From NCBI GenBank assembly GCA_964016885.1, contig OZ024752.1:22382001-22446000 (forward strand): a DNA stretch of 64,000 bases, read 5' to 3'. A model generated the notes under the pieces. The model was given only the letters and a program-made list of their open reading frames with translations. It did not search any database and was not told where the DNA came from. The stretch comes from Eledone cirrhosa. Lineage: Eukaryota. Below are positions 9,781 to 45,716 of the stretch, piece by piece; within the stretch, counting starts at the first letter, position 1, and the number at the start of each line of letters is the position of its first letter. The position numbers and the translations under genes are program-made.

Positions 9781-10043
9781 AAACAGAAAAAATGAAACGA
9801 AATTTCATTACTCACTCTTAGTACGGCTGTTACTTAAATATAAGTATGTATACGTACATACATATATGTATACAAACGTACAGTAGTATGTATATATATA
9901 CATACATGCACACATATATATATGTACGTATGGATTCACGGAACATTTATTATAATGCTCGGTGTGTTTGTAAACAAACATCCCGTATTAAGCCGTAGTG
10001 TCTAGCAACCATCGTTGCTCATTTGTTCAACACTGGCAAAGGA

Positions 10044-10086
10044 ACGCTGTACTAGTTTCAAGCTTATTAGCTATCTTCAGCAACGT
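10044..10086 (-). ncRNA. Minimal type I hammerhead ribozyme
   Basis: Minus strand: ACGTTG CTGAAGA t AGCT aata AGCT t GAAA CTAG TA ^ CAGCGT; stem I 6 bp, palindromic stem III ACTAGT, GUA triplet. Confidence 0.8.
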
Positions 10087-10474
10087 ATACCTTCCTGCCA
10101 GATGATTAAACGTCTGAAAGTATATAGTTTCCTTATGCATATTAACGGCTGAGCAGCCCAATTTGCATATCGTGTGAGTTAATCGGCCGGGGTACCGAAA
10201 ACGATAAACAGAAAATATGAAACGAAATTTCATTTCTCACTCTTAGTACGGCTGTTACTTAAATATAAGTATGTATACGTACATACATATATGTATACAG
10301 ACGTACAGTAGTATGTATATATATATATACATACATGCACACATATATATATGTATGTATGGATTCACCGAACATTTGTTATAATTCTCGGTGTGTTTGT
10401 AAACAAACATCCCGAATTAAGCCGTACAGTGTCTAGCAACCATCGTTGCTCATTTGTTCAACACTGACAAAGGA

Positions 10475-10517
10475 ACACTGTACTAGTTTCAAGCTTATTA
10501 GCTATCGTCAGCAACGT
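10475..10517 (-). ncRNA. Minimal type I hammerhead ribozyme
   Basis: Minus strand: ACGTTG CTGACGA t AGCT aata AGCT t GAAA CTAG TA ^ CAGTGT. Confidence 0.8.
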
Positions 10518-10829
10518 ATACCTTCCTGCCAGATGATTGAACGTCTGGTGAATCCATACGTACATATAATTGATCTCCTATCCAATACTATACTATATTT
10601 TTACAACAATTCAAAATTAAAATATAATTTTAAATTTGAAATCAAAATTAAAATAAATTTTAAATTTGAATTGCTGTACAAATATAGTATAGTATAATAT
10701 ATGTCACTCCACTGTACATCAATATATATATATATGTATCTGTATGTCTTTTGCGTTGGATAGGAGGTCAATTATATGTACAAGCATTGAAAAATGCTCC
10801 GAAGATTCCAAGCCTAGGTTTGGATGAAA

Positions 10830-13800
10830 CAATTTACAGTGAGTGCTGGGTGCTTTTTCGTGGCGCCTACACGTCCACTTTACAGTGTGGGCTGGGTGCT
10901 TTTTTGCTGTGGCACCTCCACGACCACCTTGCAGTGGGAGGGTGTGGGGGAATATTGTCTATATGCTTCAGCTTGTACCCATGGGAGGTCGGGTACTCTG
11001 TATTACTGCGTGACGCCAGAGGTCACGGTCGTGTGTCATCGCCTTTGAGAGGTGTAATTGGGTAAGGTCGGCTTTTATCACCTCATCCCAGGTCATCTTG
11101 GGTCTCCCCACTCCGCAGCTTCCATTGATTTCTAGTGCTCTGCACCTTTATATGCAGCTGTCATCCTTCATACGCATCACATGTCCAAACCAACGCAACC
11201 GCCTCTCCTGCACACACATTTGATTCCTCTTATGCTCAGTCTCTCTCTCAATTCATTTATGCTTTGTCGGTCGCGTATATTACTATTACACATCCATCGG
11301 AGCATGCAGGCTTCGTTTCTCTCTAATCTACGTAAGTCTTCCACCTTCAGCGCCCAGGTCTCACTACCATGCAACATCGCTATTCGGATACACGCATCAT
11401 ACAGTCTGCCTTTCATTTTGAGGGAGAAGCCTTTTGCAGCTAGCAGTGGTAGCAGTTCCCTGAACTTCTTCCATCCCGTTCTTACCCTTGTTATTGTACT
11501 TTCTGAACACCCACCTCCGCTGCTAATTCGGTTGCCTAGGTAGCAGAAGCTGTCTACTGTTTCTACAGAGCCCTCCCAGAGATTGGTGGTACTTGTTTCC
11601 TGTGGCTGTTTGCTGCTTGCTGTCCCAGCACAGCTGCTGCATGTGAAGCCTACATTCTTAATTAAGCTTCCTGAGATCCCGCTACATCTCTTGTGTACCC
11701 ATTGTTTGCATTTGGGGCAGAGAATGGAGTTCCTACCTACACCTTTCCTACATACTGAGCATGGCCATTTCCCTGAGGGGATCTGGGTTCTGTTTTCTCG
11801 TCTACTTACAAGGACCTTAGTCTTTGTCATGTATACTTTGAGACCCTTTTTTTCTAGTCTCTGCTTCCAAGTTTGGAATTTCTTCTCTAGTTCTACCATA
11901 GATTCAGCTATAAGTGCGAGGTCATCAGCATACAGGAGTTCTCATGGGCATCCGGTCTTAAACTCCTCCGTTATTGCCTGCAGGACTATGATGAACAAGA
12001 GAGGGCTAAGAGACAGAGCCCTGGTGGACCCCAACCTGTACGCTAAATTCCTCGCTATACTCATTGCTAATCCTAACTTTGTTGACTGCTCCCCTATACA
12101 TGGCTTGTACAGCTTTCACAAGCCATTCATCTACTCCTAGTTTTCTAAGAGCCCACCAGATTACAGTACGTGGAACTCTGTTAAAGGCTTTCTTGAGATC
12201 GACGAATGCCAGGTAGAGTGGCTTAATTTTAGCTAGGTACTTTTCCTGTAACTCCCTCACAAGGAAGAAGGCATCAGTGGTGTCTCTTCCTGGTACAAAC
12301 CCAAATTGCATCTCATCTAGTTTCACCCGGTCCCTAATCAACTGTGCTATAACTCTTTCTGTTACTTTCATGACCTGGTCCATCAGCTCTATACCTCTAT
12401 AGTTTCCTCTATCGAGTGCGTCACCTTTACCTTTGTAGCAGTTGACAATGATGCTACTGCACCAATCTTTTGGTATGACACCTTCTAGTATTACCTGGTT
12501 AACAATACGTGCGGTTATAGTGTGACCTACAGACCCAGATGCCTTCAGCATCTCGGCAGCTATACCCGATGGACCGGTTGCCTTCCCCATCTTCATATCT
12601 TTGATTGCCTTACTTACTACGCTGCTGCTGACTTGTACTGCTGGCCCCTCTATAGGGTCTACTTGGGGTAGGGTCTCTTCTTCCCATGCATTCTCCTCAT
12701 TTAGTAATCTATCATAATGACTCTTCCATGCATCTTTCTTCTCAGCACTTGTGAGGGCAAGCTCACCTTTATCATTCCGGATACACTTCTCTCCAATGAC
12801 ATCACAATTCTCTCTGACACACTGCCTCGCAATCTTGAACACCTCCTGTTTCTGGTCCTCACGTTGCAAAACATGCTTGAATTTTCTATCCTCTGCTTCC
12901 CTCCTAGCTAAGTATACTTGTCGCCTAGCTTCCCTCTTGGTCTCTATGTAATGTACCCTGCTCCCCCCCCGTTCTTCCATTCTTTCCATGCCTGTCTCTT
13001 GGCCTTAACTGCCTCATCTACCTTATTGTTCCACCACCAAGTCACTCTCCTCCTGCTTGTGGTCTTACTCCAGCCACAGACCTCATCTGTCGCCTCTAGT
13101 AAGTTATTTTTTAGGAACTCCCAGTTCTCTTCTACATTGAATGTCTCTATCTGTTTTTCTTTACTGTCGTAGGCGTTGAGTAAAATATCTTTAAATCTGT
13201 TACTGGCTGAGGGGTCTTTCAGCTTCCAGATCTTTCTTCTCCAGGTTGGCCTCTGTTTCCAGGTTCGTCTAGTTCTGACTGTGAGGTCGCTGACAACTAA
13301 GCTATGTTGGGAGGTACATTACTCACTAGGGAAGGCTTTTGTGTTTACGACCGTCCATCTGTCACGTTCTCTGATGAGGATAAAATCTATCTGATCTAGG
13401 TGATCAGGTGGTTGTCGGGTTTTTTGAAGTTTGTGTTACATATCGACATGTCATTGGCGTCGCAGAATTCTAGAAGTCTGAATCCTTCTTCATTTCTTGT
13501 GCCAACCCCATGGCCTCCATGGACTCTATTGAAGCCGTCACAGTGTTTACCTACGTGTCCGTTGAAATCTCCTGCGATGATTAGGAAGTCATTGTCGCTT
13601 GTTAGAGCATTAGTGTGTATTAGGGACTCGTAAAATCTATCTTTAAGTTCGTCTGGCAACCCCGATTGGGGTGCGTAAGCTGATATTATTGTGGTAATTG
13701 TTTTATTCGGGACTAGTCTGAGTTTAATGATTCTTGTATTTACCCTGTACACTGAGATTACTTTATCTACCCACTTGTCAGCTAGTAGTATACCTACACC

Positions 13801-44350: not shown

Positions 44351-44735
44351 TATATATACAGTCAACTTTCCATGTCAGTATGCATATATATATATATAAT
44401 GTATATATATATATATATATATATATATATATATATATATATATATATATATATATATATATATATATATATATATATATATATATATATATATATATAT
44501 AGATATATATAAACAATTAAGTTAAAAATGTACATCCACATATGTATACTGAAATACTAGTATGCATATGAATACACACACGTATACATATGTAGATGTA
44601 CCGAGTTTTTCACTGGTCACTTTACTGTGAGTGTCCAGCTATTCTGTATGTAAACACACAGACAAACCGGTTTTTAGAGTCATACTGGTTTTTGAGGAAA
44701 CACCTTTCCTCTATTCTCCAGAAAGCCAGACAAGG

Positions 44736-44780
44736 AACGTTGAACTAGTTTCGATGTTGTTACATCTCATCAGCAATATT
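44736..44780 (-). ncRNA. Minimal type I hammerhead ribozyme
   Basis: Minus strand: AATATTG CTGATGA GATGT aaca ACATC GAAA CTAG TT ^ CAACGTT. Confidence 0.88.
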
Positions 44781-45302
44781 TACCTATCTTCCGGCCTCTC
44801 TAGAGAATCGTAAAAGCACATTTCGTTATATGCTTTTTCTATGAAAATTAGTAGTGGGCAGACTAATTTCTTGTCAACGTTCCTTGTCTGGCTTTCTGGA
44901 GAATAGAAGAAAGGTGTTTCCTCAAAAACCAGTATGACTCTAAAAACCGGTTTGTCTGTGTGTTTACATACAGAATAGCTGGACACTCACAGTAAAGTGA
45001 CCAGTGAAAAACTCGGTACATCTACATATGTATACGTGTGTGTATTCATATGCATACTAGTATTTCAGTATACATATGTGGATGTACATGTTTAACTTAA
45101 TTGTTTAAGCGTCAGTCATACAAAAGTGAGTTACAAACGAAACGAAATTTAATTTCGTTTCGTTATTTGTTTTTATCGTCTCCGTTGAACCGGTACTTAC
45201 TCACACTCTATGCAAGTTAGTCTGCCCACTACTAATTTTCATAGAAAAAGCATATAACGATATGTGCTTTTACGATTCTCTAGAGAGGCCGGAAGATAGG
45301 TA

Positions 45303-45347
45303 AATATTGCTGATGAGTTGTAACAACAACGAAACTAGTTCAATATT
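45303..45347 (+). ncRNA. Minimal type I hammerhead ribozyme (best-formed copy)
   Basis: AATATTG CTGATGA GTTGT aaca ACAAC GAAA CTAG TT ^ CAATATT; perfect 7-bp stem I, 5-bp stem II with G10.1-C11.1. Confidence 0.9.
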
Positions 45348-45716
45348 CCTTGTCTGGCTTTCTGGAGAATAGAGGAGAGGTGTTTCCTCAAAAACCAGTA
45401 TGACTCTAAAAACCGGTTTGTCTGTGTGTTTACATACAGAATAGCTGGCCACTCACAGTAAAGTGACCAGTGAAAAAACTTGGTACACCTACATATGTAT
45501 ACGTGTGTGTATTCATATACATACTAGTATTTCAGTATACATATATGGATGTACATCTTTAACTTAATTGTTTAAGCGTCAGTCATACAAAAGTGAGTTA
45601 CAAACGAAACGAAATTTAATTTCGTTTCGTTATTTGTTTTATATATATATATATATATATATATATATATATATATATATATATATATATATATATATAT
45701 ATATATATATATATAT

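Follow-up and report, generated by a model that had tools for sequence, protein, structure and literature searches.

How do tandem repeats that carry a self-cleaving ribozyme and no protein of their own come to be scattered through a genome? The question is raised by a 64,000-nucleotide stretch of Eledone cirrhosa DNA (GenBank assembly GCA_964016885.1, contig OZ024752.1, positions 22,382,001 to 22,446,000, forward strand; hereafter, the window), in which a preliminary description had noticed non-coding repeats with type I hammerheads and proposed two subfamilies of non-long terminal repeat (non-LTR) retrozymes, here families A and B. Following these families through the genome, we arrive at the reading that the copies are two-armed non-LTR retrozymes in (TA)n tracts, probably inserted by the enzymes of Penelope-like elements (PLEs), which would have read a single circular monomer RNA many times over, starting at each of the two ends of a DNA break. 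That the copies are two-armed insertions of the PLE type was overlooked earlier and is the informative part of the result.

Within the window, the core pattern CTGANGA-N12..16-GAAACTAGTH has exactly five matches, compared with a mean of 0.01 per shuffle (n = 100), and the coordinates first given for the five type I hammerheads are these cores plus the stem I strands. Two A-type cores lie at 10050..10080 (minus strand; N7 = A, triplet GUA, U.U at the base of stem II, predicted cut after 10050) and 10481..10511 (minus strand; N7 = C, GUA, predicted cut after 10481), and the core of the second A copy is at 21643..21673 (plus strand; N7 = U, GUC, C.A at the base of stem II). The pattern is also matched in the left arm (44743..44773, minus strand) and the right arm (45310..45340, plus strand) of a B copy. 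The variation described for these cores is present: N7 is A, C or T, the triplet is GUA, GUC or GUU, stem I swaps G.U for U.G, and stem II alternates between GATGT/ACATC and GTTGT/ACAAC; in the A-type cores, U.U or C.A replaces G-C at the base of stem II. The label ‘minimal’, however, has to be dropped given that the motifs are canonical type I hammerheads with a very weak helix III, unlike those called minimal in PMC4209133. Rfam models recover the cores only in part: those of B match Hammerhead_HH9 below threshold (37.7 and 29 bits; gathering score 52), and the three A cores have no match. MicroRNA matches from Rfam in the window were likewise below threshold and were set aside as AT-repeat noise.

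The monomer length proposed for family A, 431 nt, was recovered, whereas the 466 nt proposed for B holds only for one of three types (B1, 467 nt; B2, 466 nt; B3, 469 nt), the 466-nt stretch in the window being a B2/B1 chimera with no hammerhead at its 5' end; across genomic loci, B units measure 465–470 nt. The two families are homologous and align along their length, with 67–69% identity over ~220 nt. Throughout the 3.0-Gb genome, the core pattern has 40,100 matches (2 for the reversed control), of which 9,298 are of B type. The genomic list also holds units with the same core at spacings of ~422–540 nt (stem II TAGCT-AACA-AGCTT, and others), such that the family has members beyond A and B. 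Among 99 distinct motifs, both sides change at five stem pairs, namely, stem I pairs 4 (A-T/G-C, 57/30) and 5 (T-A/C-G, 56/28) and three pairs of stem II (A-T/T-A, 79/18; T-A/G-C, 63/34; G-C/C-G, 60/33), although some of the sequences counted are related, so that the changes are not all independent; at the base of stem II, 63 motifs have G-C and 32 have U.U. The 11 catalytic positions deviate in 5 of ~2,960 copy readings versus 1.4% elsewhere (loci chosen by their 3' end). Helix III consists of one pair and the palindromic loop CUAG, with the palindrome duplex computed at −6.2 to −7.2 kcal/mol; a helix III of such weakness needs a dimer for good cleavage (PMC7229834, PMC4209133). The units are 35.5% GC, the longest ATG frame in a concatemer encodes 30 (B) or 68 (A) amino acids, and the predicted circle is 66% paired (z = −9.5 for B and −7.8 for A, against 30 shuffles each). 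Insertion ends fall inside the unit, which leaves no layout of LTR, primer-binding site and polypurine tract, although no separate search for the latter two was made. Single arms hold up to 29 units and loci up to ~38.

Being non-coding, low in GC, tandem and dispersed, with a self-paired predicted circle and covarying type I hammerheads, A and B are very probably two related families of non-LTR retrozymes, as had been proposed, and so belong to a known class. Metazoan non-LTR retrozymes are likewise non-coding tandem units whose GC content is below 45% and each of which carries a single canonical type I hammerhead (PMC7229834; preprint 10.64898/2026.07.22.740005), and those of coral, mussel, axolotl and newt (satellite 2) also come as tens of thousands of motifs in genomes that contain PLEs. 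Axolotl Amex1 has the same one-pair helix III with a palindromic tetraloop, and Amex2 has U.U at the base of helix II, as does family A. The units described here (431–469 nt) lie at or above the published range of 150–450 bp. As far as the published texts available to us go, metazoan retrozymes form head-to-tail arrays, whereas two divergent arms, paired long and short ends, PLE joins and strand-biased A>G changes are found here only; conversely, retrozyme RNA has been demonstrated in published work, whereas the present families are known from DNA alone.

With unit positions numbered from the predicted ribozyme cut, exact junctions of the long end with TA number 1,588 for B and 2,711 for A genome-wide (controls, 0). 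The first 100 of the 1,588 B matches, all on contig C1, represent 98 distinct loci, two (L147 and L210) having been left out as near-identical copies of L146 and L209; L131, a separate one-armed locus, is part of the 98 and was left out of the arm-stop and private-variant counts given below. Two divergent arms were present in 79 of the 98, 70 with a mapped inverted arm and 9 with a tiny inverted stub, and 2 were not visible far enough. The first end is fixed at 303, and the second falls at 227–235 in 62 of 66 visible cases, two of the four deviating ends being joins to a PLE. Reciprocally, when loci were anchored at the short end (the first 30 of 686 matches, about half of which overlap the long-end sample), the partner end was at 301–303 in 14 of 16 resolved cases, the others being one locus with two short ends and one with a stub. 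Among the first 30 of the 2,711 A matches, 16 loci are two-armed and 2 are unresolved; the long end is at 277 and the second at 216–221 in 11 of the 16. The spacing between the ends is 69–74 nt in B and 56–59 nt in A. The second ends, which were sampled without selection for TA, also run into (TA)n. At one non-TA insertion site, there is a target duplication of 12–14 bp, and at the inner junctions of the arms, an overlap of at least 4 nt is seen in 20 of 68 cases versus 2.5% by chance. Not every locus conforms: 17 of the 98 B loci and 12 of the 30 A loci are one-armed, and L274/L275 has two short ends, all of which count against a uniformly two-armed insertion with unequal ends.

PLEs are marked by partial tandems, by a truncated copy in inverted orientation, by a tail on one side and by (TA)n as the target (PMC8557442). 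Their tail is the stretch between two reverse transcriptase (RT) start sites; in purified form, a PLE protein cleaves AT-rich DNA on both strands and extends both, starting at two internal sites (PMC11167929). The Neptune and Poseidon clades (PMC8557442, PMC11167929, PMC4209133) share with the retrozymes described here all of these traits, the inverted copy being 5'-truncated, along with a type I hammerhead in the repeat. The differences are that the retrozymes have no RT or GIY-YIG frame, so that the whole element is one repeat, that the tail is 56–74 nt rather than 30–40 nt and the arms hold many units, that the hammerhead is canonical rather than minimal (PMC4209133), and that the long and short starts are almost always paired, whereas the purified Poseidon protein showed no strand difference (PMC11167929). 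No RT plus GIY-YIG frame, as in an autonomous PLE, was found within the arms, and PLE coding pieces occur in 11 of 152 records, from mixed families. We consider it very likely that the copies were mobilised by PLE machinery.

The same anatomy bears on the notion that the repeats, whether satellite DNA or remnants of PLE terminal repeats, multiplied at the DNA level and retain a vestigial ribozyme. Local amplification of PLE termini is the explanation favoured in the 2026 preprint (10.64898/2026.07.22.740005), and some arrays do reach 30–38 units with internal duplications. The loci, however, are dispersed and number in the thousands, and their ends in (TA)n are fixed and strand-specific; these features, together with a target duplication, the strand-biased changes reported below, and the lack of PLE coding sequence upstream of the arms save for three 3' joins, make this hardly credible.

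The copies in the window can be read against this anatomy. The first A insertion (9779..10547, minus strand) comprises ~1.8 tandem 431-nt units, and its outer (3') end coincides with the long start site (unit position 277) and abuts (TA)n at 9505-9781; a short inverted stub of an A unit (positions ~111-132; 10546..10568, plus strand), matched by eye, is likely the remnant of a second arm. The second A copy consists of two short opposed arms, the left one (21433..21617, minus strand; unit 75-261, a shortened long-start end) adjoining a TA tract at the GAT tail of a long interspersed element (LINE), and the inverted right one (21616..21757, plus strand; unit 374-431, 1-82) truncated. In the B copy, the left arm is of B2 type (44510..44869, minus strand; unit 341-467, 1-234), and its outer end, the short start site (234), adjoins (TA)n at 44384-44511. 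The right arm (44875..45640, plus strand) holds 1.6 units, starts at the predicted cut and extends outwards to the long start site (~300-303), where it adjoins (TA)n at 45640-45718; it is of B2 type to position 217 and of B1 type from 324, a change that points to a second event or a template switch within the stretch holding both end sites. A sixth fragment (9260..9450, minus strand) is a 3' piece of B (unit 112-303) without a hammerhead that ends at the long start site next to (TA)n at 9237-9262. Around it, 43 bp of flank (9218-9260 and 9460-9502) are duplicated in inverted orientation, as if copying had run onto target DNA. The block TATGCAAATT, common to A and B units and located at 10160..10169 (minus strand) in the first copy, contains an octamer motif, which we take to be a promoter element of the small nuclear RNA (snRNA) type, and is a candidate internal promoter; newt satellite 2 has a promoter of this type. 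Outside the assembly, a relaxed core pattern had no match in metagenome contigs, and a search for RNA records containing the B unit listed none. The four sequencing runs compared (X1, X3, X5 and X6) consist of contigs of unrecorded kind, which are uninformative about expression; those of X1 repeat the 303 and 234 junctions with (TA)n, and in run X3, a 497-nt contig from a second organism, compared with L033:7385-7881 (contig kind unrecorded), is one B unit plus 30 letters.

Which form of the RNA was copied can be approached through the arms themselves. The ribozyme cut site is crossed by 130 of 163 arms, with ~280 passages overall, and in these 163 arms, no pile-up of stops was found at the cut (5 stops within 6 nt versus 3.8 expected). 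A cut linear monomer would halt the copy at position 1, yet most arms cross, so the template was continuous, that is, a circle or an uncut multimer. A cut monomer could still serve if the RT jumped from its 5' end to a 3' end; the right arm of the B copy in the window, a B2/B1 chimera that starts at the cut, fits this scenario, as do a mild excess of stops at positions 1-26 (15 versus 8.5, p = 0.03 uncorrected, gone after correction over 18 bins) and the joins described below, which show template switching by this RT. Set against these are the numerous passages with so few nearby stops, unit junctions that are clean in 62 of 62 units of six long arrays (with only isolated single-base changes near the junctions in the arrays examined), and the one haplotype kept across both arms, and we regard a cut monomer as improbable.

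The haplotype is evident from the comparison of arms: the two arms of a locus are closer to each other than to the median other locus in 58 of 58 cases and at least as close as to the nearest other locus in 49 of 58, so that both come from one haplotype. Of the variants private to one of 96 loci, 28 are fixed in all copies of that locus, 18 of them on both arms; where a rare variant is fixed on both arms, it can be carried by as many as 10 of 10 copies. When distinct subfamily-site-change events were counted over 90 loci assigned to five subfamilies, the locus-fixed changes on the RNA strand showed an excess of A>G over T>C (44 versus 19, p = 0.0014), with G>A and C>T balanced (16 versus 21), whereas single-copy changes are balanced (A>G 36, T>C 34). 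The 5' neighbour of the 44 A>G sites is U in 21 and G in 3, which matches the preference of ADAR. An RNA-level change that is found in every unit suggests that one monomer was read many times. Locus-fixed changes are depleted in the region holding both start sites (p = 0.01); five of them, all A>G, fall in the octamer block, which thus tolerates such changes, as would fit an element acting in DNA only.

An uncut linear multimer, copied from the same PLE twin start, explains equally well why arms cross the cut site; long arms would then arise via long transcripts and unequal crossing-over, and the hammerhead would only trim or make dead-end circles. Uncut RNA was the chief substrate of the one purified PLE (PMC11167929), Chlamys non-autonomous PLEs without canonical hammerheads also yield multicopy tandem insertions (PMC8557442), and two arrays contain higher-order repeats: the C1b array has a period-3 pattern, and L123 has variants in common among its 30 units. 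Independent editing of units, however, predicts the A>G excess among single-copy changes, and the excess is instead locus-fixed; rare variants fixed throughout both arms need a monomer bottleneck; and the catalytic positions are nearly invariant. On this balance, the uncut multimer appears rather unlikely.

We therefore return to the circular monomer, which, judging by the variants, is fairly likely to have served as the template. Apart from the substrate preference of the purified protein, the higher-order patterns, the early stops and the cut-site start in the window, several observations weigh against it. In the strictest editing test, confined to variants private to one of the 96 loci, A>G exceeds T>C by 8 to 5, which is not significant; pairing in the predicted fold is no commoner among the edited A's (19/36 versus 90/149); the 15 core positions have 0 locus-fixed changes versus 7 (p = 0.10, not significant alone); and a locus-fixed change may descend from the source locus. 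In addition, the stop rate drops to zero past 2.1 kb, which, along with the higher-order patterns, means that arm length does not reflect a single RT run alone; growth at the DNA level also took place in some long arrays. In the left arm of a young B array (G000:C1:56387338-56392606; L035-L036), an A>G variant follows a G,G,A pattern of period 3 and is absent from the right arm, reflecting either a trimeric template or a later block duplication.

The PLEs of this genome offer a candidate helper. From 10,595 GIY-YIG candidates, 150 of which were scored, six families (F1–F6) were delineated, and the autonomous families F1, F2 and F4 have the same long and short ends in (TA)n as the retrozymes. 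In a screen of 216 locus records (156 B and 60 A, some overlapping), direct sense-to-sense joins connect three retrozyme arms with F4, and no arm is joined in this way to any of the other five families; pieces of all six lie near retrozyme loci. At L292, one arm is B with its long end; the second starts with 41 nt of B and continues as 2.4 kb of F4, which bears the short end of F4, and the rest of B does not reappear beyond it. At L056, the short end of A is paired with the long end of F4. F4 has the C-x5-CxxC linker, a feature of the Neptune clade (PMC8557442), and its 3' motif has 3,647 exact matches in the genome. On this evidence, we lean slightly towards the Neptune-type family F4 as the helper. 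The case is weakened by the third join, L159, which is less clean and has two long ends; by the lack of any sequence common to the units and any of the six sampled PLE families; by a screen from the F4 side, in which 39 F4 loci, viewed 1.5 kb each way, and one A locus yielded no direct join in 40 besides one already known; and by the fact that direct joins could be mimicked by later deletions. In Chlamys, non-autonomous PLEs (MRC1, for example) have 3' sequence in common with their autonomous partner, whereas none was found here, and they mostly have no canonical hammerhead, which is conserved here (PMC8557442). L167 was ruled out as a PLE–retrozyme hybrid, its retrozyme sitting in (TA)n after a PLE; L122 and L162 touch F1 at the inner side of the arm, with a tiny inverted arm between, and read like L167.

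Motifs resembling hammerheads, in which a U3-A8 core (TTGAAAA or TTGATAA) is combined with the palindrome ACCGGT, occur in F4 (L292:4245-4275), F5 (3' regions at L118 and L167) and F1 (3' region at L112); such a core has been described for Schistosoma PLEs (PMC4209133). In the F4 motif, the GAAA half reads GCAA, unchanged in the 3,647 exact matches. The window itself has a degenerate Penelope-like coding piece of family F6 (50079-50383; 48–64% identity). Its other contents include a 2.25-kb direct repeat (3060-5308 and 5760-8008; 99.9% identity), each copy of which contains a histone 3' stem-loop that exceeds the gathering score of Rfam (4850-4894 and 7550-7594), and LINE copies with matches to RT and PHD-finger domains and GAT-repeat tails, some internally inverted (10990-13998, 17238-21404 and 23253-26854). 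Two copies of an open frame of 420–430 codons built on a 30-bp repeat (35204-36466 and 40796-42091) sit within a larger duplication that includes 2.5–3-kb ATACC arrays.

A possible cycle would begin with transcription of a tandem array, perhaps from the octamer block, followed by hammerhead cleavage of the multimer into monomers of 431 or 466–469 nt, probably as dimers formed via the ACUAGU palindrome. A host ligase would close the circle, which might sometimes undergo adenosine-to-inosine (A-to-I) editing. A PLE endonuclease/RT would then cut both strands in (TA)n and use two start sites, one for each DNA end, the footprint of which is seen in the copies. As the arms record, copying proceeds backwards across the cut site and can continue for many units; the arms are joined head to head, often via the 2–13 nt of microhomology observed at the junctions; and in some arrays, an arm has later been lengthened by DNA-level duplication. 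In its fullest form, this is a tentative model, to which we assign somewhat less than an even chance: a dimer of a Neptune-type Penelope enzyme, loaded at two fixed sites of a single RNA circle that is self-cut and self-paired, each site serving one end of the break, would write two opposed rolling-circle arrays, such that A-to-I edits would be barcodes of the single template and hybrids would name the helper family.

The retrozyme class and the hypothesis of PLE-mediated mobilisation have been published already, on the basis of co-occurrence and similarity of pseudo-LTRs (PMC7229834; preprint 10.64898/2026.07.22.740005); a word search of the preprint text finds no mollusc in its sampling. We found no description of cephalopod retrozymes, two-armed retrozyme insertions or editing scars in a literature search that did not extend to subscription papers, Repbase/Dfam or the supplements of these two accounts. 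The copies described here give insertion-level evidence that is lacking from the published accounts consulted, in which both the mover of retrozymes and the circle as template are so far proposals. They supply start sites at base resolution and a rule for how these are paired, along with young insertions by the thousand and a candidate helper of which the genome holds near-complete relatives, so that the proposal becomes testable in the existing in vitro system for Penelope proteins. They also bear on Penelope integration itself, as a two-ended reaction with unequal start sites. If the reading of circle and helper is true, these insertions would directly support, from genomic data, the retrotransposition cycle via circular RNA that has been proposed for retrozymes of animals, and the retrozymes would be a natural compact substrate for Penelope enzymes.

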